A stretch of 64,000 nucleotides of DNA, from contig DASTCJ010000114.1 of NCBI GenBank assembly GCA_035605575.1, forward strand, positions 1,285-65,284, written 5' to 3'. Numbering within the stretch: position 1 is the stretch's first letter; each line of letters starts with the position of its first letter. The stretch is from Candidatus Methylomirabilota bacterium. GTDB taxonomy: Bacteria; Methylomirabilota; Methylomirabilia; Rokubacteriales; CSP1-6. This document shows positions 1-52,532 of this stretch, piece by piece. The translations under genes and the position numbers were made by a program. The notes beneath the pieces were generated by a model that was not told the DNA's origin, did no database searches, and saw nothing but the letters and a program-made list of their open reading frames with translations.

Positions 1-1809
1 GCGGACGGCGATCTCCAGTCGTCGACGCAGGGTTGTCAATGCCGCGCGCAGGCGCACCGGATCCTCGTCGCCGCCGGCCGATATCCGCACGGGCGCCACG
101 ACGCCGGCGATCTCGTGAACGAGCGCAATCTTCTCGGCCTGCTGCTCGGGGATGACGCTCAAGACGCTGACCACATCCGATACCGACGCGAGGCGCCCGA
201 ACGCATCCCGCTTCAGACGCAGGTCGTCGAGGGTGGTTGCCGACGACATCGCCGGGAAAGCGGAGCGACCCGAGGCGATGATCTTTCGCTCCCACGCCGA
301 GGATTCCGTGCCCTTTGCCTGGAGGTTCAGCCGGTTGTAGTCGAAGCGAACCATCGGCAGGGCCCACAGCGACAGGCCGGTCAGCACGACGGCGACCACG
401 ATGATCGGGCGTGAACGCGCCGTGAGCCGCTCGAGCACTCGCACGCCCGGACGCGAGGCCGGCGATGTGGCCGACGCGTTCGCGCCGCCCGGCGCGTCGC
501 TGCGGGCATCGAGGACGACGAGGACGGCCGGGAACAGCGTGACCATGGCGACGAAGGCGACGAAGATCGCCATGCCGCCGATGAAACCGAACTCGACGAT
601 GCCACGGAACTCCGTGAGGGTCAGCACCCCGAACGTTCCCGCGGCCGAGAGCGCGGAGAACAAGATGCCCGGACCGGCGCGAGCCGCGGTGATCTCGGCC
701 GCCGCCCGCGTGGCCCGGCCGAGACTTCGCTCCTCGTCGTAGCGGAACAGGAAGTAGATTCCGTAGTCGATGCCGATGCCGACAAAGAGCGAGATGAACA
801 TCACGGAGAACACGGTGAGATGCCCGACCGTCACGGTGATGATGCCCAGCGACCAGGCGAGGCTCACCAGCAGCACGAGGAACAAGACGAGCGACTTCGT
901 GAATCGCCGGAAGAGCAACAGAACTGCCGCCAGGACGAGGATGCACGACAGCGTGGTGGCCACGGCGCTGTCCTGGAACGCGGTGACCATCTCGTCGTTG
1001 GCGAGGGCCGGGGCGCCGGTGACTCCGGCCTCCAGGCCCGGAAACTCCGGGCGCAGCGCGGCGATGACCCGCCGGATGCCGGCGATGACGTGCTGGTTAT
1101 CGGTGAAGTTGCCGGCCTCCCGTCGCGGCTCGACGAGCATGAACAGCAGCTTGTTGTCGCCGGACAGGAAGTAGCCGGAGCGTTCCTCACGCTTGTCGGT
1201 GAAGAGCGAGCCCCAGGGTGACGGTCGCGGACCTTCGCGCTCGAGACGTTCATCGATGGTGGCCAGGAGTGTGTCGATGAACGTCGCGTCCAGGCGCGGG
1301 GGCTCGTCGTCCAGGCCGAGGTCGAGGAATCGGCCGGCAAACCGGCGGGTGATCTCCTTCTCGAGACCGGCGAGCAGCGCGGCCAGGGTCGGGTTCGCCG
1401 CGTATTCATCGAGGAGAGGCCGGTGCTCCCGGATCTTGTCCCGCAGCTCCGCCAGCTGCGTCGTCGACGCGTAGAGCAGCGCCCGTCCGGCGAACGCGTC
1501 CGGATCAATGCGATAGGTGACCCGGGCTCCCGACAGAGTCAGCCGGTCCGCCACACGCGCGGCGAAGGCCTTCGCCTGCTCGACGTCACTGGCCTCGACG
1601 GCGATGACGATGTCGTTCAGCTCGCCGAAGTCGCGCAGGTACTGCTTGAAGCGCTGCACGTACACGCGATCCTGCGGCAGCAGCTCGACGGCCGACGTCT
1701 GGAACGTCAGGGCGCGTGCAGTGTAGAAGATCCCGAGCCCGGCGAGCAGCACGCACAGGATGATGGTCAACACCGGACGGGCGATGGCCGCCCGGACCAC
1801 GTGGATCAT
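1..1809 (-). CDS. MMPL/RND-superfamily exporter (HpnN-like), N-terminal 603 codons; C-terminus lies beyond the left window edge
   Basis: Absent from the ORF track because the frame stays open to position 1. Reverse complement from 1809 reads MIHVVRAAIARPVLTIILCVLLAGLGIFYTARALTFQTSAVELLPQD... The later stretch ...FISLFVGIGIDYGIYFLFRYDEERSL (codons at 721-780) is the GxGxDYxI-x3-R-x2-EE membrane signature of MMPL transporters. Confidence 0.8.
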   Translation of the reverse strand, partial: MIHVVRAAIARPVLTIILCVLLAGLGIFYTARALTFQTSAVELLPQDRVYVQRFKQYLRDFGELNDIVIAVEASDVEQAKAFAARVADRLTLSGARVTYRIDPDAFAGRALLYASTTQLAELRDKIREHRPLLDEYAANPTLAALLAGLEKEITRRFAGRFLDLGLDDEPPRLDATFIDTLLATIDERLEREGPRPSPWGSLFTDKREERSGYFLSGDNKLLFMLVEPRREAGNFTDNQHVIAGIRRVIAALRPEFPGLEAGVTGAPALANDEMVTAFQDSAVATTLSCILVLAAVLLLFRRFTKSLVLFLVLLVSLAWSLGIITVTVGHLTVFSVMFISLFVGIGIDYGIYFLFRYDEERSLGRATRAAAEITAARAGPGILFSALSAAGTFGVLTLTEFRGIVEFGFIGGMAIFVAFVAMVTLFPAVLVVLDARSDAPGGANASATSPASRPGVRVLERLTARSRPIIVVAVVLTGLSLWALPMVRFDYNRLNLQAKGTESSAWERKIIASGRSAFPAMSSATTLDDLRLKRDAFGRLASVSDVVSVLSVIPEQQAEKIALVHEIAGVVAPVRISAGGDEDPVRLRAALTTLRRRLEIAVR

Positions 1810-1972
1810 CGCCGAAGGTCCGCGCCGATCACGGGCGTCTGGGTAGGAGCGGGGCCGGCGCCGTCACGAACCGATCGTCAGGTGCTGCGGCCCGCGATCC
1901 GGCACCCGGCGTGGATGCGTCTCCCCGAGCCCATGCGTTCGATGATATCGCGGGCCGCGAGACACCGTGCCC

Positions 1973-3238
1973 TCAGGCGGGCTCGGGATCGATCGCGAAG
2001 AACTCTCGATACGACCGGAAGCTCTGATCGAGCGACGGCCCGTCCAGCGCGAACCTTTTGAGATCATACGCGTGCCGCCCGTGCTTGTGCTGCGGATTGC
2101 CGGCCAGGTGTTGTCGCATCCGTAGCTCGGCCTCCGCCGTGAGCGGCAGCCCGAAGTGCGTGTAGATCTCGCGGATCGTCGCGATCGGATCGCTGACGAG
2201 ATCGTGGTAGCGGACGTCGAAGAAGCGCTCGGCCGGGATCGTGCCAGCCTGCCGGACGCGCAGGGCGCGCGCAAGGCCTTCGGTCCACGACTGCACGACT
2301 TCCCGCCCGATCTCCGGAAGGTCGAGCGGCTCCGCGAAGGCCGACTGCAGGCTCACGGTGAGGCTGGCCACGGAGCCGAGCGCAGTGCGCGGATCGCGGT
2401 GGGTCTGAACGACGAGCGCGTCCGGATAGATCGCGAAGAGCGAGTCCATGGCGTAGAAGTGCGCGGGGGCTTTCAGCACCCAGCGATTGTTGCGCGTGCG
2501 CGACTGCAAGTGCTCCAGAAATCGGCGGTGGTACACGTACGCGGGCCGCATGTCCTGCTTTTTCAGCCATGCCTGGTACGAGGGCAGGCGATACGTGGTG
2601 TGGAAACGTGAGCTGAGGAAGCTATGACTCAGGATGGCGATGCACTCGATGGCCAGACGCGCGCCGAGGGGGTGGATGGTCTTGAACTCGGGGGCGAGCC
2701 AGTCCAGCCACCGGAGCTGCCGCTCCGCGCGATCGATGCGTGGATCGGTCTCGTAGCCGGCGTCGTCGGGCGGGGGTGACGGCGCCATGACCTCCCAGGT
2801 CAGAGCGGCGCGACTGGCCGGGTCCTGCGAGATGAGATGATGGAGCAGCGTCGTGCCCGTCCGTGGCAGGCCAATGATGAACATCGGACGCTCGATGCGC
2901 TGCTCGGCGATGCCGGGATAACGCTTCCGGTCCTCGGCCAGACGCAGCCGTGTTGTGAGCAGTCCGAGCAGATCCTGGCGCGCCGCCAGGCGGCCCAGCA
3001 GCGTGAGGCGCGCTTCCGTCTGGAGGCCGTCCAGGATCAGGCGCAGCGGTTCGCGGAACTCGTCGCCGCCGAAATCGTCCAGACCGGTCGCGCGGCACGC
3101 AGCCTCCAGGAGCGAGTCCTCCTCGAGACTGACGGGTTCGATGCCGAGGCGGCGCAGGCCACGTCCGGCGGTGTTGACCAAATAGATGCCAGCCTGGAAG
3201 CTCGAAGTGCTCAGGCTCATCACGACCTCACCCTCCAT
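1973..3238 (-). CDS. sulfotransferase family protein
   Basis: 421-aa ORF. It has the PAPS-binding loop IIGLPRTGTTLLHHLI and a RWVLKAPAHF block typical of Sulfotransfer_3-type enzymes. ATG at 3238 overlaps the upstream stop (TGATG). Confidence 0.85.
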   Translation of the reverse strand: MEGEVVMSLSTSSFQAGIYLVNTAGRGLRRLGIEPVSLEEDSLLEAACRATGLDDFGGDEFREPLRLILDGLQTEARLTLLGRLAARQDLLGLLTTRLRLAEDRKRYPGIAEQRIERPMFIIGLPRTGTTLLHHLISQDPASRAALTWEVMAPSPPPDDAGYETDPRIDRAERQLRWLDWLAPEFKTIHPLGARLAIECIAILSHSFLSSRFHTTYRLPSYQAWLKKQDMRPAYVYHRRFLEHLQSRTRNNRWVLKAPAHFYAMDSLFAIYPDALVVQTHRDPRTALGSVASLTVSLQSAFAEPLDLPEIGREVVQSWTEGLARALRVRQAGTIPAERFFDVRYHDLVSDPIATIREIYTHFGLPLTAEAELRMRQHLAGNPQHKHGRHAYDLKRFALDGPSLDQSFRSYREFFAIDPEPA

Positions 3239-44917: not shown

Positions 44918-45178
44918 CGGCCGCCGCGCCAGCTTCTCCTTGTCACCGCGCCGAAGACGCTTGAGCACCGCCTCTCGACGCGACGCGGCCGCGCGATCGC
45001 GCGCCGGCTCGGCCCACACGAGCCGCACGGGTCGGCGCGCGCGCGTATACTTCGACGCCGTGCCGGCGTTGTGCCGGGCGACGCGCCGGGCGAGCGCGTT
45101 GGTGATACCGGCGTAGAGGGTGCCGTCCGCGCAGTGCAGGAGGTAGCAGAACCATCGAGGTCGCGAGCGTCGGGCCAT
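44150..45178 (-). CDS. GIY-YIG nuclease family protein; only the first ~85 codons are homologous, and the frame then runs without a stop antisense to the transglutaminase gene
   Basis: ATG at 45178. Sequence: MARRSRPRWFCYLLHCADGTLYAGITNALARRVARHNAGTASKYTRARRPVRLVWAE...REAVLKRLRRGDKEKL. The first in-frame stop is at 44150. Confidence 0.6.
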   Translation of the reverse strand: MARRSRPRWFCYLLHCADGTLYAGITNALARRVARHNAGTASKYTRARRPVRLVWAEPARDRAAASRREAVLKRLRRGDKEKLARRPSAWLARMLGEPRARLGGEPGALLVSQSERVEAIPVMQRQQRRQPRGIDVRQAGARDTSKPDRKRLGGRTGKGEPCQRALDVVERRVGAARDRARGGRPARGATRNPSPRVEPPAEQQEERNEQPAHRPRQTILALAPAPAGEEVTAPRPQVPDGEAAHRLALGLHPVGRRRVQLPPGAVEPDERPRVRVVGADDETPLERAPFVDGVADGVAGRNAGGAQEQHGRRGEVLAMPAPRSLEEVGERGRADGAVGHEP

Positions 45179-46067
45179 GCGCCGTCGACATGCTAGCAGA
45201 CCGCGGCTGACGGCCCGCGATCTCGCCGACGCGCGCGACCGGGCATTCCGGCGGCGCCCCGCTCTGCGCGTGCGCACCGCTCGCGCGGCCGAGCGCTTTG
45301 TCGAGGCGGTCGGGTTCTGCTCGACCTTCCACTGCTTCTCCGAAGGCCTGCCGTGCCTGTGGGAAGCGGTGGTGGGACGCGCGCGTCCGCGCTGGCCGAA
45401 GCGCTCGCATCACGACGACGGCATCGGCCTCACGTGGCGGCTGAAGGACGACTTGCCGGCGGCGCGGCGTGTCTACTACGGCAAGATACTGAAGGGCCGC
45501 CCGCTGCTGGTCGCCCTCGACCTTTTTCCGGCTTTCTACGCGCTCGTCCGCGGACGCCAGCGTGCGCGTCACTATGTTGCCGAGTACGAGGCCGGGCGCC
45601 TCTCGCATACCGCGCGGCGGCTCATGGATGCGCTGGTGCGCGACCATCCGCAGTACACGCGCGAGCTTCGCGCGAATGCCTTCATGCTCGAGTCCGCAAA
45701 GACCCGCGAATTCGAGCGCGCGATGGCGGAGCTCCAGCAGGGACTGTGGGTGGTGAAGACCGAGGAGCGCTACGAGCCGACGTTTTCGTACCGCTGGGAT
45801 CTGCTCGAGTCGTGGCTCCCCGACGCGGTTCGCGCCGGCCAGCGGCTGTCGCGAAAGACGGCGCTGGATGAGGTGGTGAGTCGCTACGTGCGCGCCGCCG
45901 TGTACACCCGCCCCCGGGTGCTGGCGCGCCTCTTCGGTGTGCCGCTGAAGGAGATCGAGGCCGCCGGCTCACGACTGCTCCGCCGTGGAACGCTGATCGA
46001 CGCTCACGTCGACGGCTGGCCGGGACGGTGGCTCGTCGACGCCGATCTGGCAGCGCGCTTGCTGTAA
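45177..46067 (+). CDS. hypothetical protein, possibly a YcaQ/AlkZ-like winged-helix protein
   Basis: 296-aa ORF of reasonable composition. The family assignment is a weak recollection only. An alternative GTG start is at 45270. Confidence 0.5.
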   Translation: MRRRHASRPRLTARDLADARDRAFRRRPALRVRTARAAERFVEAVGFCSTFHCFSEGLPCLWEAVVGRARPRWPKRSHHDDGIGLTWRLKDDLPAARRVYYGKILKGRPLLVALDLFPAFYALVRGRQRARHYVAEYEAGRLSHTARRLMDALVRDHPQYTRELRANAFMLESAKTREFERAMAELQQGLWVVKTEERYEPTFSYRWDLLESWLPDAVRAGQRLSRKTALDEVVSRYVRAAVYTRPRVLARLFGVPLKEIEAAGSRLLRRGTLIDAHVDGWPGRWLVDADLAARLL

Positions 46068-46456: not shown

Positions 46457-46882
46457 ATGAAACGGAAAAAAACTGCCCGGGACCAACGCGCCCGTAAGCC
46501 CGTCGACCCGACCGAAGGTCAGCGCATCGCCGAGCGCTCCGCTCGGCGGGGCGTGCCGGAAGAGCAGTTGGAGGGGCCACCGGCGGCGGAGACCGTCTTG
46601 ATGCGCTCCGACGCGGAGATCCGCGAGGAAGCCGAGGCGCCGGATCGCGCGCGACTCACCGGCGGCGACGTCGATGCCGACTGGCAGCGCGCCGGCGATG
46701 TCGGCGAGGAAGCCGTCGGTGGCTCCGTCGCGACGCCCGATCAGGATCGCGTCGATGACCTCGGTCGCGCGCTCGGTGTCCCGCGTGCGCCGGACGAGGA
46801 GGTCCGCACGTCGACCGAGATTCTCGAGGGACGGGACCGCAATCGCTGGGAGCAGGAACAGTCTCCAGGGGGTGAGCAATGA
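46457..46882 (+). CDS. conserved hypothetical acidic protein
   Basis: 141-aa ORF containing LTGGDVDADWQRAGDVGEEAVGGSVATPDQDRVDDLGRALG. I weakly recall this as a DUF family. ATGA overlap with the next gene. Confidence 0.55.
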   Translation: MKRKKTARDQRARKPVDPTEGQRIAERSARRGVPEEQLEGPPAAETVLMRSDAEIREEAEAPDRARLTGGDVDADWQRAGDVGEEAVGGSVATPDQDRVDDLGRALGVPRAPDEEVRTSTEILEGRDRNRWEQEQSPGGEQ

Positions 46883-47748
46883 GAGGGACGATGGCGCTGG
46901 TCGGTGGCGCCGGCCTCGGGGCCGGCCTCATGTACTTGCTGGACCCGGATCGCGGCGAGCGTCGCCGCGCCCGCCTCGGCGAGACGATGAGTGAGGCGGC
47001 GGAGCGCCTCGCGAGCCAGGACATGATGTCGACCGTCCGCAGCGCCGGGGCGCGTCTGGCGGGCTCGGACGTGGTTTCCGGCGTGCGGCGCGCGGGCGGG
47101 CGGATGGAAACACCGCGGCTCGTTTCGAAGCTGGCCTCCGCCGCACGTGACCCGCGCTCGCTGCGGCCGACATGGCGGCATGGTCGCCTGACCTTCCGCC
47201 GCCGCGAGTCGGGCCTGCTCGACCGTTACGGCTGGTCGTTCCTGGGTGTCGCCGCCGGTCTGCTCGCGGCCGGAGTCTGGGGTCTGTGGCGTCGCGAGCC
47301 CGACGAGGTCCGGGAATCGGTCACGGTGAGCGCTCCGCGCGAGCGCGTGTACGAAGAATGGACGCGCTTCGAGAACTTCCCACGCTTCATGCCCGCTGTG
47401 CGGGAGGTTCGCTCCAGCGGCGCCGATCGGACCCACTGGGTCATCAATGGTCCCGCCGGCACGCCGGTCGAGTTCGAATCCGTCGTCACCCGGCGGCAGC
47501 CGCCCAGCGCGGTGGCCTGGCGAACGGTCGAGGGCGCGCTCGTCTCACACGGCGGGACGGCACGCTTCCGGCCCGCCGGGCCTGGCGCCACGCGCGTCGA
47601 CGTCACCATGTGGTGGCGGCCGGCCGGCGGCGGCATCGGCGAAGGCGTGGCCACGCTGTCGGGGATCGACCCCGCGCGCGTGCTGCGCGAAGGCCTCGAG
47701 CGGTTCAAGGGCGAGCTCGAGCAGGGAACGCATGCCGCCAGACGGTAG
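46879..47748 (+). CDS. SRPBCC family protein with an N-terminal Gly-rich membrane-associated segment
   Basis: 289-aa ORF. The sequence APRERVYEEWTRFENFPRFMPAVREVRSSGADRTHWVINGPAG parallels the SRPBCC protein at 15981. Confidence 0.8.
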   Translation: MRGTMALVGGAGLGAGLMYLLDPDRGERRRARLGETMSEAAERLASQDMMSTVRSAGARLAGSDVVSGVRRAGGRMETPRLVSKLASAARDPRSLRPTWRHGRLTFRRRESGLLDRYGWSFLGVAAGLLAAGVWGLWRREPDEVRESVTVSAPRERVYEEWTRFENFPRFMPAVREVRSSGADRTHWVINGPAGTPVEFESVVTRRQPPSAVAWRTVEGALVSHGGTARFRPAGPGATRVDVTMWWRPAGGGIGEGVATLSGIDPARVLREGLERFKGELEQGTHAARR

Positions 47749-48541
47749 CCCGGTCCGTGTCGCGGCCGTGGCCGATCTGCACTGTGCGAAGGCCATGGCC
47801 GCCGGCACCTTCCAGCCGCTGTTCGCGCAGGTCGCCGAGCGAGCGCACGTCCTGGCGCTCGCTGGCGATTTGACCGACTACGGATCACCGGAAGAGGCGC
47901 GCCTGCTCGCTCGCGAGCTGGCGACGGCCAAGGTCCCGGTGGTCGCAGTCTTCGGCAACCACGACTACGAGTCCGAGCGCCAGGACGAGGTGAAGCAGAT
48001 CCTCACCGAGGCCGGCGTCACCGTCCTCGACGGCGACTCCGTGGAGATCCACGGCGTCGGCTTCGCCGGCGTCAAGGGCTTCGCGGGCGGCTTCGGGGAG
48101 CGTGCCCTCCAGTCGTGGGGCGAGCCGATCCTGAAGCGCTTCGTCCGCGAGGCGGTCGACGAGGCGCTGAAGCTCGAGAGCGCGCTGGCGCGGCTGCGCA
48201 CGCCGCACCGGATCGCGCTCCTGCACTACTCGCCGATTCGCAGCACCGTGGAGTGCGAGTCGCCGGAGATTGCGCCGTTTCTCGGCTCGAGCCGGCTCGA
48301 GGATCCGATCAACCGGTATCCGGTGTTTGCTGTCGTGCACGGTCACGCGCATCGCGGGACGCCCGAAGGGCGCACGGCGACCGGCGTGCCGGTTTACAAC
48401 GTCGCGCTGCCGTTGCTGCGACGGCACTACCCCGATCAGCCACCATTTCGAATCATCGAAGTGCCTGCGCCGCGCGCCGACGCCGCCACGGCGCCGGTGG
48501 GCGTCCACAGCGGGGTCGGCGTCGGAGCGACCGTGCCATGA
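47732..48541 (+). CDS. metallophosphoesterase
   Basis: Internal ATG. Motifs: AAVADLH, LAGDLTD, FGNHD, VVHGHAH. Confidence 0.9.
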   Translation: MPPDGSPVRVAAVADLHCAKAMAAGTFQPLFAQVAERAHVLALAGDLTDYGSPEEARLLARELATAKVPVVAVFGNHDYESERQDEVKQILTEAGVTVLDGDSVEIHGVGFAGVKGFAGGFGERALQSWGEPILKRFVREAVDEALKLESALARLRTPHRIALLHYSPIRSTVECESPEIAPFLGSSRLEDPINRYPVFAVVHGHAHRGTPEGRTATGVPVYNVALPLLRRHYPDQPPFRIIEVPAPRADAATAPVGVHSGVGVGATVP

Positions 48542-49353
48542 GCGAGCAGCTCTGCCCCGAGACCCGTGACTTCTACCGTCGCGCCATGGCCGCCCTCGAC
48601 GCGGAGGGCGTCCCGTTCCTCGTCGGCGGCGCCTACGCGTTCGAGCGGTACACGGGAATCGCGCGTCATACGAAGGACTTCGACATCTTCGTGCATCCGC
48701 GCGACGTGCAGCGCGTGCTCGACACGCTGGCCACCATCGGCTGCGAGACGGAGCTGCCGTTTTCGCACTGGCTCGGCAAGGCGCGGTGGGGGGACGACTT
48801 CGTCGACGTGATCTTCAGCTCCGGCAACGGCGTGGCCGCCGTGGACGACGACTGGTTCCGGCACAGCGTGGAGGCCACCGTCCTCGACCACGAGGTCCGG
48901 CTCATTCCGGCCGAGGAGATGATCTGGTCCAAGGCCTTCATCATGGAGCGCGAGCGGTTCGACGGCGGCGACGTGGCGCACATCCTCCGCGCCTCTGCCG
49001 AGCACATCGACTGGCCGCGCCTGGTGGCGCGCTTCGGCGACTACTGGCGCGTGCTCATGGCCCATCTCGTCATCTTCGGGTTCGTCTATCCATGCGAGCG
49101 GCACCGCATTCCACCCGGCGTCATGAGCGAGCTGTCGACACGGCTCCAGCGCGAGCTGCGCACGCCGGAGAGCGGCGAGCGCGTCTGCCGGGGCACGATC
49201 CTGTCGCGCGCGCAGTATCTCGTCGACGTCGAGCGGTGGGGCTATCTGGATCCGCGTGTGGCGCCCCACGGCAACCTCACCGAGCGGGAGGCGGAGACGT
49301 GGACGGCCGGCATCGCCGACGACGGACCGCCGGAGGCGCTGCGCGCCGCCTGA
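48538..49353 (+). CDS. nucleotidyltransferase-fold family protein
   Basis: Internal ATG (ATGA overlap). FLVGGAYAFERYTGIARHTKDFDIFV fits the GG...DxD pattern of pol-beta-like nucleotidyltransferases. Confidence 0.7.
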   Translation: MSEQLCPETRDFYRRAMAALDAEGVPFLVGGAYAFERYTGIARHTKDFDIFVHPRDVQRVLDTLATIGCETELPFSHWLGKARWGDDFVDVIFSSGNGVAAVDDDWFRHSVEATVLDHEVRLIPAEEMIWSKAFIMERERFDGGDVAHILRASAEHIDWPRLVARFGDYWRVLMAHLVIFGFVYPCERHRIPPGVMSELSTRLQRELRTPESGERVCRGTILSRAQYLVDVERWGYLDPRVAPHGNLTEREAETWTAGIADDGPPEALRAA

Positions 49354-49393
49354 TCGCGTAGAATCCCGGCCATCCACTCCGGGAGGTGCTGGG

Positions 49394-49786
49394 ATGCCGA
49401 AGATCGAGAAGTTTTCCGCGGTCGGGATGTTCGATCCGCCGACGTACAGCCAGGGCATCAAGGTCAGCGAGGCGGGCACGGTGCTCTTCCTCGCCGGGCA
49501 AGTCGCTTACGACAAGGACGGCTCGGTGAAGCACGCGGGCGACTTCAAGGGCCAGGCCCGCGAGGTGTTCCGCTGCATCAAGTCGCTCGTGGAGACAGCG
49601 GGCGGCCGCATGGACAACATCGTGAAGCTCAACACCTACCTCACAGACATCCGGTATCGCGCCGACCTCGTGCCCATCCGCGAGGAGTTTCTCGGCAAGA
49701 AAGGACCGGCTTCGACGCTCGTGCAGGTGTCGGCGCTGGCCCACCCCGACTGGCTCATCGAGGTCGAAGCCATCGCCGTGCTGTAG
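49394..49786 (+). CDS. RidA/YjgF family protein
   Basis: Internal ATG with GGGAGG 7 nt upstream. Typical sequence: LFLAGQVA...NIVKLNTYLTD...ASTLVQVSALAHPDWLIEVEAIAV. Confidence 0.9.
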   Translation: MPKIEKFSAVGMFDPPTYSQGIKVSEAGTVLFLAGQVAYDKDGSVKHAGDFKGQAREVFRCIKSLVETAGGRMDNIVKLNTYLTDIRYRADLVPIREEFLGKKGPASTLVQVSALAHPDWLIEVEAIAVL

Positions 49787-49789
49787 GCT

Positions 49790-50797
49790 CTAGCCGGCGA
49801 GCTTCGCCAGATCGAAGCGCCCGCGCGCGGCGCGGGCGGTGACGGGTGCCCAGAGATCGCCAAGCTTGCGAACGCGGGCGGGCACGTTGTCCATGCGGAA
49901 GTCTTCGATGGTGGCGCCGCCGGCGAGCTCCTCCCAGCTCACCGGCGTCGACACCGTCGCGCGCGGCCGCGGCCGCACCGAGTAGACGGAGGCGAGCGTG
50001 TGCCCCCACGCGTTCTGGTTGAAGTCGACGTGGACGCGATCGCGCGGACGCGCGTCCTTGCGATAGATGGCGGTGGCCAGGCGCGGATGGCGCCGCGCGA
50101 TGTCGACGGCGATCGTCTTGGCCACCGTCCACACCGCCTTCTGCGTCGGACCCCGCACGATCGGCACGTAGATGTGCACGCCGCGGCTGCCGGTCGTCTT
50201 CACGTAGGTCGGCATGCCGAGCTCGCGCAGGGTCGCGTTCACCACGCGCGCCGTCTCCACCACCTGCGGCCAGCGCACCTCCTCGCCCGGATCGAGATCG
50301 AAGTGCAGATAGTCCGGGCGGTCGACGTCGTCGCAGCGGGCGTACCACTCGTTGAGGTCGATGCAGCCCAGGTTGATGACCCACAGCAGGGAGGCGAGGT
50401 CGTTGATCACCGGAAAGTCGATGATGTTGCCCGACGAGTGCTCGATCGCGCACGTCTCGATCCACGCGGGGCGCGGCGCGGGCGCGCGCTTCATGAAGAA
50501 GAACTCGCCGGTGGCGCCGTTCGGATAGCGCTTCATCACCATGGCGCGATCGCGGATGTGCGGCAGGAGCGCCGGCGCCAGCTCGGCGTAGTAGCGCACG
50601 AGGTCGCCCTTGGTGAGGCCCTCCTCGAGCCAGAACACCTTCTTCAGATTGGTGAGCTTCACGATGCGGTCACCGACCGCCACCTCGACGTCGTTCACCT
50701 CGCGGGGAATTTCGACGCGCCGGCCGGAGCGGCCGCCACCGGCCGCGCGCGTGCGCGTGGCGGGGTGGTAGTCGCGGGTCGGCTGGGCGCGCGCCAT
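49790..50797 (-). CDS. stand-alone LigD-type polymerase/primase domain (NHEJ PolDom)
   Basis: 335-aa ORF. Blocks: KLTNLKKVFW, MKRYPNG, HFDLDP, YVKTTGSRGVHIYVP, RVHVDFNQN. Confidence 0.9.
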   Translation of the reverse strand: MARAQPTRDYHPATRTRAAGGGRSGRRVEIPREVNDVEVAVGDRIVKLTNLKKVFWLEEGLTKGDLVRYYAELAPALLPHIRDRAMVMKRYPNGATGEFFFMKRAPAPRPAWIETCAIEHSSGNIIDFPVINDLASLLWVINLGCIDLNEWYARCDDVDRPDYLHFDLDPGEEVRWPQVVETARVVNATLRELGMPTYVKTTGSRGVHIYVPIVRGPTQKAVWTVAKTIAVDIARRHPRLATAIYRKDARPRDRVHVDFNQNAWGHTLASVYSVRPRPRATVSTPVSWEELAGGATIEDFRMDNVPARVRKLGDLWAPVTARAARGRFDLAKLAG

Positions 50798-51387
50798 CAG
50801 CGGATCCGCTCGAGCCGCGGCGGGCGCACGCCATGGCGGATGGCGCCCGCCACCGGCACGTAGTCGAGCTCGCGGCCGGCGCGGACGCAGCGCAGCAGCA
50901 GGCCGCCGCGGCTCATGTCGCCGCGGCCGACGAAGTCGATCGGAAAGCTCAACCGCTCGCCGAAGATGCCGAGCAGCACGCCGACGTACTTGTCGGAGGC
51001 AATGGAGCCGAGCAGGGTGATCGTGTCGTCCGGCTTGAGCAGTGACGCCACCGCGCGCGCCGACTGCTCGAGCGGCCGGCGGTAGCGCGGGTTGGCCGCG
51101 TCGATGTCGACACGTGCGCTCGCGCGCAGCATGCCGAGCGTCACCGGCGCCTCGGCAGGGCGCAGCCCGGCGTCCGGCGTGATGACGAGCGGAACGCCGA
51201 ATGCCTCGGCGTAGGCGAGCTTGCCGCGGAAGTAGAGACCGGACACGAAGCTCATCACCTCGCCGAGGGAAGCCCCGCCCGCCGCGCGCAGTCGACGGGC
51301 GAGGGGGAACGCCGCCCGCGAGGAGAGGAGCAGCTGCGCGCGCTCGCCGCCGCAGTTCGCGGGCGAGAGGAGGAACACGCGGGCCAT
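50797..51387 (-). CDS. hypothetical protein (196 aa), translationally coupled to PolDom
   Basis: Clean ORF: MARVFLLSPANCGGERAQLLL...LLGSIASDKYVGVL...FVGRGDMSRGGLLLR. Its stop shares a base with the PolDom ATG (TGATG). No family recognised. Confidence 0.65.
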   Translation of the reverse strand: MARVFLLSPANCGGERAQLLLSSRAAFPLARRLRAAGGASLGEVMSFVSGLYFRGKLAYAEAFGVPLVITPDAGLRPAEAPVTLGMLRASARVDIDAANPRYRRPLEQSARAVASLLKPDDTITLLGSIASDKYVGVLLGIFGERLSFPIDFVGRGDMSRGGLLLRCVRAGRELDYVPVAGAIRHGVRPPRLERIR

Positions 51388-51427
51388 CGCTCAGCGTGCG
51401 CGCGTGGTCGTCACCGGCGTCGCGCGG

Positions 51428-51568
51428 TCACGGATCGCTGCAGTCGTGGTAGAAGCCGCAATTCGCGCAGACGATCTTGCACTGGCGCTCTTGCATCTCC
51501 GCGCCGCAGCGCGCGCAGGTGCGCGGGGCCGGCGTCCGCAGGGAGCGTGTCGCACGCGGAGCATCCAT
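51428..51568 (-). CDS. small zinc-ribbon protein (46 aa, two CxxC pairs)
   Basis: Hand translation: MDAPRATRSLRTPAPRTCARCGAEMQERQCKIVCANCGFYHDCSDP, then stop. It is below the track length cut-off and sits upstream of the 196-aa gene on the same strand. Confidence 0.45.
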   Translation of the reverse strand: MDAPRATRSLRTPAPRTCARCGAEMQERQCKIVCANCGFYHDCSDP

Positions 51569-52097
51569 GCCGTTACGATACACTTCTTTCATGCCCGAGT
51601 GGTCGGATCAACGCTTCCTGCAGACGGTCTTCGATGAGACGCGCGTGCTGCGCAAGCCGCTGCGCGGCATCATCAGCGGCTACCACGTGCTGCCGTACGT
51701 GCTGGTGGGCCCCTCGGCGTACGACCAGGCGTCCAAAGCCGTGGAGGTCCGCGGGCGCATCCGCGTGTCGCCGCGGCTGGTCATCGGGGGCGGCGCCCCG
51801 ACCTACGGCGAGCTGTTCGGCGAGCACGAGCTGATGGACGGCCGGATCGTCGCGCGCATGTTCAGCTTCCGCTACGCCTCGCGTGTCAATCTGGAGTCCG
51901 AGGAGCTGAAGATCCGTCGCTACGAGCGGGAGCCACCGGCCCAGCTCGACCGGGTGCTCGAGGAGCTGGCGCAGCGGGAGATCATCGACACGGCCGTGAT
52001 CTCGTCGCCCGACGCGCGGTTTTACCCGGTCTCGCTCGACCGGTTCATCCGCGAGATCCTGGACCAGGAGCTCCCAGACGAGTCAGGAGGCGGGTGA
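51567..52097 (+). CDS. hypothetical protein
   Basis: Internal ATG of track ORF 51477..52097, with an alternative ATG at 51591. Non-repetitive composition (…LRKPLRGIISGYHVLPYVLVGPSAYDQ…). No family recognised. Confidence 0.55.
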   Translation: MPLRYTSFMPEWSDQRFLQTVFDETRVLRKPLRGIISGYHVLPYVLVGPSAYDQASKAVEVRGRIRVSPRLVIGGGAPTYGELFGEHELMDGRIVARMFSFRYASRVNLESEELKIRRYEREPPAQLDRVLEELAQREIIDTAVISSPDARFYPVSLDRFIREILDQELPDESGGG

Positions 52098-52437
52098 GCT
52101 CCTCCGGGTCCACCGGCTTCACGACGTGCGCGTCGAAGCCGGCCTCCTCCGCGCGTCGCCGATCGTCCGGGTCGCTGTAGCCCGTGAGCGCCACGAGATA
52201 CGCGCGCGGCCCCGCCATCGCGCGCAGGCGGCGTGCCACCTCGTAGCCGTCCATGCCGGGCAAACCGATGTCGATGAGCGCGACCGCGGGTGTCTTGGCG
52301 CGGGCGATCTCGAGGCCCTGCGCGCCGTCGCCCGCGGCTTCGACGTCGTAACCATCCAGCTCGAGCAGCACGCGCAACGCATCGCGTGCGTCGGCGTTGT
52401 CCTCGATGAGCAATACGAGCGGCATGTGGACATTCAC
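52045..52437 (-). CDS. single-domain response regulator (CheY-like)
   Basis: 130-aa ORF: LVLLIEDNADARDAL...ALIDIGLPGMDGYEV...VALTGY...HVVKPVD. Confidence 0.85.
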   Translation of the reverse strand: MNVHMPLVLLIEDNADARDALRVLLELDGYDVEAAGDGAQGLEIARAKTPAVALIDIGLPGMDGYEVARRLRAMAGPRAYLVALTGYSDPDDRRRAEEAGFDAHVVKPVDPEELTRLLTRLGAPGPGSRG

Positions 52438-52468
52438 CGTACCACGCGCGCCAAGGCGGCGCCGCGCC

Positions 52469-52497
52469 TTGACACGTGAAATCGCCGGATGTTAAAC
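52469..52497 (+). promoter_or_regulatory. candidate promoter of the liv-type operon
   Basis: Exact TTGACA (52469-52474), a 17-nt spacer, then TTAAAC (52492-52497), about 36 nt before ATG 52533. A 7-bp hairpin CAAGGCG/CGCCTTG (52452-52471) overlaps the -35. Confidence 0.4.
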
Positions 52498-52532
52498 ATC
52501 ATGCGCAGTTACCCGCTCACGGAGGCTCCCTC

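Follow-up and report, generated by a model that had tools for sequence, protein, structure and literature searches.

The locus described here lies within a 64,000-nucleotide stretch of a Candidatus Methylomirabilota contig (the window) and contains three closely packed genes on the minus strand and a divergent neighbor. A stand-alone LigD-type polymerase domain (PolDom) of 335 aa is encoded at 49790..50797 (minus strand), and p196, the gene for an uncharacterized basic alpha/beta protein of 196 aa, lies at 50797..51387 (minus strand). Upstream of these is a gene for a six-cysteine zinc ribbon (51428..51592, minus strand; 54 aa, or 46 aa if read from 51568) with a conserved core at 51431-51517, and the divergent gene p176 occupies 51591..52097 on the plus strand (168 aa; 176 aa if it starts at 51567). 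The presence and positions of these four open reading frames (ORFs), as originally predicted, were confirmed in the sequence, as was the one-base overlap TGATG (50795..50799, minus strand) between the p196 stop codon and the PolDom ATG, an arrangement suggestive of translational coupling. Gene calls for three relatives, L013, L016, and L018, show the same 1-nt overlap. The locus recurs near-identically in the soil metagenomes of nine or more studies, which excludes an assembly chimera. Within p196, perfect-match metatranscriptome contigs span 51100-51325 and 51136-51294; a promoter and terminator scan over 49300-52500 was uninformative.

Assignment of the 335-aa protein to the LigD-type primase-polymerases proved solid. 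It matches PF21686 over all of the model (positions 1-254 of 254; E = 4e-86, 289 bits against a cut-off of 27.4) and TIGR02778 with 241 bits (cut-off, 214.7). Inspection of the translation by eye against known AEP motifs revealed HFDLDP, SRGVHIYV, and HVDFNQN, which supply the acidic residues of AEP catalysis (DxD and a further Asp) together with the conserved His motif. The protein is an intact LigD-type primase-polymerase. Its best sequence matches in the PDB are to Mycobacterium smegmatis Prim-PolC (5op0/6sa0, 177 bits), compared with 151 bits for Mycobacterium tuberculosis LigD-Pol (2iru); as judged by these scores, the nearest solved structures are those of Prim-PolC, which in mycobacteria belongs to the LigC excision-repair complex. 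Prim-PolC modules are characterized by a preference for short gaps, insertion of ribonucleotides, and a Prim-PolC-specific C-terminal element. In a phylogeny, the PolDom and the p196-linked PolDoms of other phyla formed one clade with support of 97/98, outside which fell the five other PolDom paralogs of the same genome. Identity to the PolDom is 60-85% for the p196-linked proteins and 31-42% for those five paralogs. The p196-linked PolDoms are a dedicated clade.

The absence of Ku and ligase near the PolDom, noted in the original prediction, extends to the whole contig. The genome encodes two Ku proteins, four ATP ligases, and six PolDoms in total, with Ku on contigs C109 and C95 and the ATP ligases on C40, C49, C126, and C36; Ku-PolDom and fused LigD loci are present elsewhere in the same genome. 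When the fetched flanks of 110 p196 loci were searched, Ku was found within 6 kb of p196 at one, and a LigD PE domain near p196 at none. The earlier label of NHEJ-type needs adjusting: Ku is not a neighbor, and among solved structures the polymerase is closest to the Prim-PolCs. LigD is composed of PE, Lig, and Pol domains. Canonical NHEJ, built on Ku and PE-Lig-Pol LigD, uses the same polymerase family and the same ligase superfamily as that found in p196 relatives; it differs in that p196 is unlinked to Ku and has no PE domain nearby, in that the domains are separate genes at p196 loci, and in that LigD has no counterpart of p196.

To define the neighborhood of p196, a cross-phylum census was made of 80 loci, 78 of them assessable, from Methylomirabilota, Acidobacteriota (Vicinamibacteria and Thermoanaerobaculia), Verrucomicrobiota, Gemmatimonadota, and others. 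At 57 of the 78 loci, p196 is followed directly by a co-directional gene for a PolDom and/or a LigC-type ligase, the downstream neighbor being a PolDom alone (32 loci), a PolDom followed by a LigC-type ligase (10 loci), or a ligase alone (15 loci), and the linkage extends over at least four phyla. Within its own phylum, p196 is adjoined by a PolDom or LigD at 27 of 30 loci, of which 24 have the co-directional p196-to-PolDom order and 3 have a LigD-type gene in other arrangements. A LigC-type ligase follows the PolDom at 10 of 42 PolDom-linked loci across phyla and at about 9 of 24 in Methylomirabilota. Spacing is tight: 21 of 55 linked loci offer a start codon that overlaps the p196 stop by 1 or 4 nt, and a further 10 of the 55 have gaps of at most 15 nt. 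The wider flanks vary by phylum, with ruvCA-fabH-fabH in Acidobacteria and RR/p176 here. An in-frame p196-PolDom fusion was considered for loci with long open frames and rejected, the two genes lying in different frames by blast coordinates (for L104 only, by hand). In a sample of 121 genomes of the phylum, a PolDom was present in 47 of 47 p196-positive and 28 of 74 p196-negative genomes (Fisher's P = 4e-14, not corrected for phylogeny, which confounds it). Neither polymerase nor ligase adjoins p196 at 21 of the 78 loci, whose neighbors (sulfatase, peptidases, methyltransferase, and others) include no recurrent partner, and more distant family members have other settings, such as convergence on rnhB, coupling with cinA, or neighborhoods that are uninformative. 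The contexts of these distant subfamilies include PolX, XthA, RNase HII, CinA, DUF763, and PNK kinase. The proposal that the 196-aa protein is a PolDom partner was thus strengthened by recurrent, tight linkage to stand-alone PolDom and LigC genes across phyla and by the dedicated PolDom clade.

The other two proposed partners fared differently. The zinc-ribbon ORF, which carries two CxxC pairs, is a real, conserved small gene: its core, CxRCGxxMxERxCKIxCxxCGxxxDC[SA]DP-stop, recurs at about 25 loci, on one strand or the other, some of them without p196 and PolDom, so that the small-ORF conservation named beforehand as a test was found. Its similarity to the HVO_2523 zinc-finger family (NF041914) is weak and subthreshold (29.8 bits; cut-off, 60; E = 4e-7). 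The ORF flips strand while staying co-directional with the divergent 168-aa gene and is missing from 70 of 80 cross-phylum p196 loci; because it accompanies the divergent gene also at loci devoid of p196 and PolDom, it is not a PolDom partner. The divergent gene has about 975 homologs, most of those listed being 163-168 aa long, which makes a start at 51591 likelier than one at 51567, although some gene calls give 169-176 aa. It matched no Pfam or NCBIfam family, and its AF2 model, built on a shallow alignment, reached a pLDDT of only 35. Nor does it belong to the module, occurring without the p196-PolDom pair in a synteny of AlkZ-related, RidA, and ABC transporter genes; loci L136-L139 exclude both the zinc ribbon and p176 as PolDom partners.

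We then turned to p196 itself. That it carries no recognized motif held against Pfam, NCBIfam, PADLOC, and PHROGs, none of which gave a family match, and against PDB sequences, where single-sequence and profile searches returned nothing significant. The family is large (1,552 clusters at 50% identity) and basic (median pI, 10.3; 10.7 for the protein here, with 25 Arg but 3 Lys, the genome being 70% GC). Its invariant residues are S49, Y52, R54, K56, Y59, S128, K133, Y134, and R160, and no Asp, Glu, His, or Cys is invariant in the family. A single match was found in 45 of 47 positive genomes, compared with up to six PolDom copies, making p196 an essentially single-copy chromosomal gene amid conserved housekeeping neighborhoods. 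This setting, together with the lack of a PADLOC match for either p196 or PolDom, ruled out a defense system. Homology to the LigD PE domain (PF13298) was likewise rejected, given no Pfam match and no invariant His, Asp, or Glu.

The AF2 model of p196 has high confidence (pLDDT, 96). Foldseek found no PDB match with an E value of 0.001 or less, and YaaA was absent from the top 50. Against BFVD, p196 matched phage models named DUF6884/YaaA with E values of 4e-4 to 4e-3 and, for the four best, probabilities of 0.99-1.0, with TM scores of only 0.46-0.52. The modeled fold may therefore bear a weak structural similarity to DUF6884/YaaA-like phage proteins. Alignment of the p196 profile by hhalign was not significant (E = 0.13 for DUF6884; E = 0.07 for YaaA, using an alignment of Acidobacteriota ORFs and Escherichia coli YaaA), with motifs nonetheless in register. 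Proteins of the YaaA (DUF328, PF03883)/DUF6884 (PF21818) "cantaloupe" fold resemble p196 in being small alpha/beta proteins with the same order of elements, in basic charge, and in a connection to DNA damage; the N-terminal strand motif LLSPA of p196 recalls L(L/I)SPAK of YaaA, and its ITPxxGL aligns with ILSAxYGL. The signature motifs of DUF6884/YaaA proteins are CxxxK and LSAxxG (PMC11701544), neither of which is conserved in p196, where SPAxxxGxR and ITPxxGL are found instead. These proteins bind DNA, and pull-downs with abasic and ribonucleotide lesions recovered YfjM (PMC11701544, PMC10220248). The differences are that p196 falls under every sequence threshold, with a TM score of about 0.5 and no YaaA PDB entry among the top Foldseek matches, and that its genomic partners are PolDom, LigC, and a PNK kinase. 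Pfam PF21818 matched 2 of 31 family members at only E = 0.12 and did not match p196 here; since DUF6884 occurs in only 1 of 121 genomes of the phylum sample, p196 is not simply a mis-scored DUF6884.

Some family members are N- or C-terminal fusions of the p196 domain with a P-loop kinase, which best matches the kinase domains of mammalian PNKP (3u7g, E = 3e-12) and Clostridium Pnkp, as well as TIGR01663. One such fusion recurs on four contigs, and no separate PNK-type kinase gene adjoins p196 at any of 110 loci. To our knowledge, all characterized polynucleotide kinases of the T4 Pnkp, mammalian PNKP, or Clostridium Pnkp type are fused to a 3'-phosphatase. The p196 fusions share with those enzymes a similar 5'-kinase domain and the theme of end healing and sealing but pair the kinase with p196, where those enzymes have a HAD or metallophosphoesterase phosphatase; the p196 described here has no kinase fusion.

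Among the closest known systems is that of mycobacterial LigC and Prim-PolC, which shares with p196 relatives a stand-alone LigD-like AEP polymerase and an operon link to a minimal ATP-dependent ligase (PMC5663958, PMC7442782). It is also Ku-free, as p196 loci appear to be on genomic context only. Prim-PolC and LigC act together in excision repair, and a base excision repair glycosylase is sometimes encoded in the Prim-PolC operon (PMC5663958); accessory repair genes such as fpg join the operon on occasion. A p196-like protein has not been described there, and the phyla are different; moreover, the constant partner in our loci is p196, while the operon ligase is optional. Many relatives have a ligase in the p196 operon, whereas here none is encoded on the contig and the nearest homolog is on contig C49.

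Because p196 is encoded directly before dedicated PolDoms and/or small ATP ligases in several soil phyla, it is probably a third component of a repair system. Our best reading makes it a new subunit of a Prim-PolC/LigC-like pathway, one that binds DNA breaks or lesions and possibly processes ends, and we consider it fairly probable that p196 is an undescribed third component of a Ku-independent module of this kind for repair of DNA strand breaks and gaps. The p196 and PolDom genes form a cassette of two that is conserved as such and has been inserted here between ridA and the zinc-ribbon/p176 genes. In the mechanism we propose, p196 would bind a damaged site, which may be a nick, a short gap, an unligatable end, or a position that is abasic or holds a ribonucleotide. 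It would then recruit or position the dedicated PolDom, presumably through physical interaction with PolDom or LigC, for filling of the gap, and a LigC-type ATP ligase would seal the nick.

An alternative explanation gives p196 a catalytic instead of a binding role: it would be a new domain for end healing, for example a 3'-phosphatase or a cleaner of 3' ends, that replaces LigD PE in operons with polymerase and ligase and replaces the PNKP-type phosphatase domain in the kinase fusions. The p196-PolDom-LigC operons do carry polymerase and ligase and never PE, the third element of LigD; the kinases to which p196 is fused in both orders have characterized kin that all carry a 3'-phosphatase; and conserved Ser/Tyr/Lys/Arg clusters follow beta strands in the manner of phosphate-binding loops. 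However, because no Asp, Glu, His, or Cys is invariant, no known phosphatase or phosphoesterase chemistry (HAD, metallophosphoesterase, PE, 2H, or PTP) is recognizable, and the model has no structural match to any hydrolase in the Foldseek search of the PDB, so we regard this explanation as unlikely. Gap repair by PolDom and LigC would otherwise lack an AP/5'-dRP lyase, an activity that in other systems comes from Pol beta or Ku, and p196 might supply it through a lysine. K56 and K133 are kept in 99% and 94% of the family although p196 otherwise uses Arg, the context of relatives is excision repair (PMC5663958), and abasic DNA enriches for YfjM, a DUF6884 protein. This argument is purely inferential, phosphate contacts explain the conserved lysines equally well, and p196 has no similarity to known lyase folds such as HhH, H2TH, and the 8-kDa domain; we hold a lyase to be quite improbable. 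A bolder and, to our minds, doubtful version would make p196 a catalytic end-processing domain with an unprecedented Ser/Tyr/Lys/Arg active site free of metal-binding residues, performing the 3'-end cleaning or lyase step of a three-part p196, PolDom, and LigC machine for single-strand-break repair, with PNK-kinase fusions in other lineages. Such a machine would be a prokaryotic functional counterpart of eukaryotic PNKP/Pol beta/Lig3/XRCC1.

Another explanation for the linkage could be inherited synteny or hitch-hiking devoid of functional significance, the role of p196 lying elsewhere, for instance in nucleotide or RNA metabolism. The evidence for p196 is wholly by association, partners are missing at 21 of 78 loci, and distant members have unrelated neighbors. 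Yet the pair is retained while both flanks differ between phyla, the partner switches among polymerase, polymerase plus ligase, and ligase, stop and start codons overlap, a PolDom clade is dedicated to p196, and independent fusions join p196 to a nucleic-acid end kinase. Taken against these observations, hitch-hiking is very improbable.

The p196 family is large, unannotated, and abundant in soil Acidobacteriota, Methylomirabilota, and Verrucomicrobiota. Its gene order is as tight as the Ku-LigD link and is accompanied by a co-evolving, dedicated polymerase clade and by polynucleotide kinase fusions; linkage of the Ku and LigD genes was the original clue to bacterial NHEJ. On the current view, Ku, a ligase, a polymerase, and sometimes a phosphoesterase are all that bacterial NHEJ and LigC/Prim-PolC repair require. 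If p196 is a break sensor, a scaffold, or an end-healing enzyme, it would add a missing player to Ku-independent repair of strand breaks and gaps in slow-growing, desiccation-exposed soil bacteria and would assign a function to a fold without a solved relative.

All of the open reading frames (ORFs) that the original prediction placed in the window are present at the predicted positions, and its identification of a LigD-type polymerase was borne out. The full-length minus-strand gene at 49790-50797 encodes a LigD-type primase-polymerase (PolDom) that matches PF21686 (E 4e-86), exceeds the TIGR02778 score cutoff, and has intact AEP motifs. Its ATG has one base in common (TGATG) with the TGA of the 196-aa ORF (p196; 50797-51387, minus strand). 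A small Cys-rich ORF, the zinc ribbon, lies upstream of p196 on the same strand (end 51428, start 51568 or 51592), and the divergent plus-strand ORF p176 runs to 52097, with homolog lengths favoring a start at 51591. As predicted, Ku and ligase are missing, with neither Ku nor an ATP-dependent ligase found anywhere on the window's contig. The window (GC content, 68 to 72%) is part of contig C7 of a Methylomirabilota/Rokubacteria-type metagenome-assembled genome (MAG) that is 88.9% complete, and near-identical copies of the locus occur in soil metagenomes from at least nine studies. Perfect-match contigs within the p196 gene in two metatranscriptomes suggest that the gene is transcribed, DNA carry-over being the other possible source of these contigs.

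The proposal that p196 belongs to a PolDom partner family was supported by gene neighborhoods in other genomes. We assembled 80 p196 loci from several phyla, one genome per species and most of them MAGs, and scored adjacency from tblastn coordinates because gene calls are crude in these GC-rich loci. PolDom and/or a minimal ATP-dependent (LigC-type) ligase was linked to p196 in 57 of the 78 assessable loci, a frequency (73%) that holds for the subfamily closest to the window's p196 rather than for all 1,552 clusters of the family. PolDom follows p196 in 32 loci, PolDom and then the ligase in 10, and the ligase directly in 15, the last in Verrucomicrobiota/Chthoniobacterales; no polymerase or ligase adjoins p196 in 21 loci, and 2 lack downstream sequence. 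The linked ligase has a KxDG motif. Of 55 loci, 21 offer a start codon that overlaps the p196 stop by 1 or 4 nt, and 10 more offer one within 15 nt. The 21 unlinked loci have unrelated neighbors, and 20 of them come from genomes with a PolDom elsewhere; they are scattered among linked loci in the p196 tree and so look like orthologs that have lost adjacency, not a separate paralog. Among 121 genomes sampled from the window's phylum, 47 carry p196, essentially in single copy, and 75 carry PolDom, including all 47 with p196 (Fisher P = 4e-14, uncorrected for phylogeny). PolDom or LigD adjoins p196 in 27 of 30 loci fetched from this phylum (24 codirectional p196-to-PolDom pairs and 3 loci where a LigD-type gene is arranged differently). 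Distant p196 homologs (loci L132 to L134 and L157) lie either between rplS and a convergent, 3'-overlapping rnhB (RNase HII) gene or 4-nt coupled downstream of the competence/damage-inducible gene cinA.

The window's PolDom is 60 to 85% identical to p196-linked PolDoms of other phyla and 31 to 42% identical to the five other PolDoms of its own genome. In a maximum likelihood tree, 52 p196-linked PolDoms form one clade (support, 97/98), with all five paralogs outside. The best solved relative of the window's PolDom is Mycobacterium smegmatis Prim-PolC (5op0/6sa0; 177 bits), the stand-alone polymerase of the LigC excision-repair complex, ahead of Mtb LigD-Pol (2iru; 151 bits). The genome, with six PolDoms in all and, outside the window's contig, two Ku, four ATP-dependent ligases (one a fused LigD), and one LigD phosphoesterase (PE) domain, is unusually well stocked with genes for end joining and gap repair. 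The contexts, over contigs C49, C95, C36, C126, C154, and C220, are Ku-PolDom (C95), a LigC-like ligase beside PolDom (C49), fused LigD (C36), PE-ligase (C126), and two others. The PolDom tree and the p196 tree each split the Methylomirabilota pairs (L101 to L130), compared with L019 to L098, into two groups, one in the zinc-ribbon/p176/response regulator context and the other with LigC downstream and nested among Acidobacteriota sequences, a pattern suggesting that the whole p196-PolDom cassette may have been horizontally transferred.

Ku was found within the fetched flanks of 1 of 110 p196 loci, and no LigD PE domain lies beside p196 in the fetched loci. The sole Ku (L093, 8041-8871, plus strand) is ∼1.4 kb downstream of p196 in a Chthoniobacterales genome in which the ligase that usually follows p196 is missing. 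In four representative clusters, the p196 domain is fused to a P-loop kinase, which precedes it in P0131 and P0138 and follows it in P0150 and P0151; one fusion recurs on four independent contigs. This kinase best matches the corresponding domains of mammalian PNKP (E 3e-12) and Clostridium Pnkp, together with TIGR01663 and TIGR04075. On the P0131 contig (JGI 3300048101), the fusion gene (139-1257) overlaps a DUF763 (PF05559) gene (1254-2522) by 4 nt, making DUF763 a possible further partner family.

The p196 family comprises more than 8,000 clusters at 90% identity, every one labeled hypothetical, and 1,552 at 50% identity (E ≤ 1e-3). The initial failure to recognize a motif was confirmed: single-sequence or profile searches of Pfam, NCBIfam, PADLOC, and PDB sequences gave no match, and PHROGs gave one insignificant match (E 0.024). 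A 31-sequence alignment has the conserved blocks hhLLSPAxxxGxRA, SGLYFRGKxxYA, VITPxxGL, VLLGSIAxxKY, and FPxxFVGRGDMSRGGLLLR. Nine polar residues are invariant across 81 members (S49, Y52, R54, K56, Y59, S128, K133, Y134, and R160); Asp, Glu, His, and Cys are absent from the invariant positions, and the median pI of the family is 10.3. AlphaFold2 gave a very confident alpha/beta model (pLDDT 96, pTM 0.91). Foldseek found no PDB match at E ≤ 0.001 (best E 0.09, TM ∼0.25); its top BFVD matches were phage proteins named YaaA or DUF6884 (E 4e-4 to 4e-3, probability 0.99 to 1.0, TM 0.46 to 0.52). The Pfam paper presents DUF6884 as a YaaA-like, "cantaloupe"-fold DNA-binding family, and abasic or ribonucleotide lesions were found to enrich for its member YfjM (PMC11701544, PMC10220248). 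Profile-profile comparison fell short of significance with a DUF6884 alignment (E 0.13) and with YaaA (E 0.07), although motifs fall in register in these alignments (LYFRGK/LYxSxRIK, ITPxxGL/ILSAxYGL, and LLGSIAxxKY/FFKGGARKxY), and the N-terminal LLSPA resembles L(L/I)SPAK of YaaA. Remote homology to YaaA/DUF6884, short of family membership, is plausible. A same-class genome (L099) provides a further DNA repair context of this superfamily: a bona fide DUF6884 gene (1474-1899, plus strand; motifs ACGAKK and ILSSEYGL) is followed after 2 nt by a 426-aa ORF (1901-3178, plus strand) whose C terminus resembles the Fe-S cluster loop of EndoIII/MutY-type HhH glycosylases.

The proposal that the zinc ribbon is also a PolDom partner was not supported: it and p176, noted as an uncharacterized divergent neighbor, form a separate unit. 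The zinc ribbon is a real gene, because its 30-residue core (CxRCGxxMxERxCKIxCxxCGxxxDC[SA]DP-stop) is kept in ∼25 loci whatever its orientation. Its partner or neighbor is p176: it lies just upstream of, and codirectional with, a p176 homolog in L028, L107, L128, L138, and L139 and adjoins p176 in loci lacking any p196 or PolDom (L136 to L139). Of the 80 cross-phylum p196 loci, 70 lack both genes. The ∼975 p176 homologs, typically called at 163 to 168 aa, include members in AlkZ-related/RidA/ABC transporter synteny lacking p196-PolDom. In the window, a conserved plus-strand gene run upstream of the cassette (45177-46067 and 46457-49786) encodes an AlkZ-related protein (PF24741, a DNA-glycosylase-like family), DUF6335, an SRPBCC protein, a metallophosphoesterase (PADLOC PDC-S10, E 1e-11), an NTP_transf_5 nucleotidyltransferase, and RidA. 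Portions of this run also occur in synteny with p176 where p196-PolDom is absent. In the simplest history, the zinc-ribbon/p176 pair would have been separated from ridA by insertion of the two-gene p196-PolDom cassette. The zinc ribbon may be cotranscribed with p196 in the window (40-nt gap, same strand) as a local circumstance. If it starts at 51592, it and the 168-aa p176 gene (start 51591) begin head to head on a common CATG palindrome (51590-51593), so that the upstream region of each lies inside the other. The pair is conserved while the small gene varies in orientation, which suggests a putative functional two-gene unit.

What p196 contributes was judged from comparative genomics and predicted structure, on which all readings rest. 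A trivial explanation, that its adjacency to PolDom is synteny without meaning, is very improbable: flanking genes vary by phylum (yebC-ruvC-ruvA-fabH-fabH upstream in Acidobacteria; a response regulator, p176, and the zinc ribbon in the window's lineage), and the pair is thus more than frozen synteny. p196 could itself be an end-healing enzyme that takes the PE slot in Pol-Lig-X operons and the phosphatase slot in PNK fusions, but it has no recognizable catalytic residues, and we regard this as unlikely. Doubtful to a greater degree is a Lys-dependent AP/dRP lyase, at which only two invariant lysines in an Arg-rich protein hint.

We favor, as the probable role of p196, a DNA recognition or recruitment subunit of a Ku-independent, Prim-PolC/LigC-like module for strand break and gap repair. 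The observations behind this role are linkage, translational coupling, the dedicated PolDom clade, the fusions to kinases, the lack of neighboring Ku and PE, the basic charge of p196, and its confidently predicted fold, which weakly resembles YaaA/DUF6884. p196 would bind DNA and interact with PolDom/LigC, and breaks and gaps would be the presumed substrate class. No description of the family or its PolDom/LigC link was found in the searchable literature or in 2025-2026 family libraries. The module is best classed as LigC/Prim-PolC-type repair with a previously undescribed constant partner.
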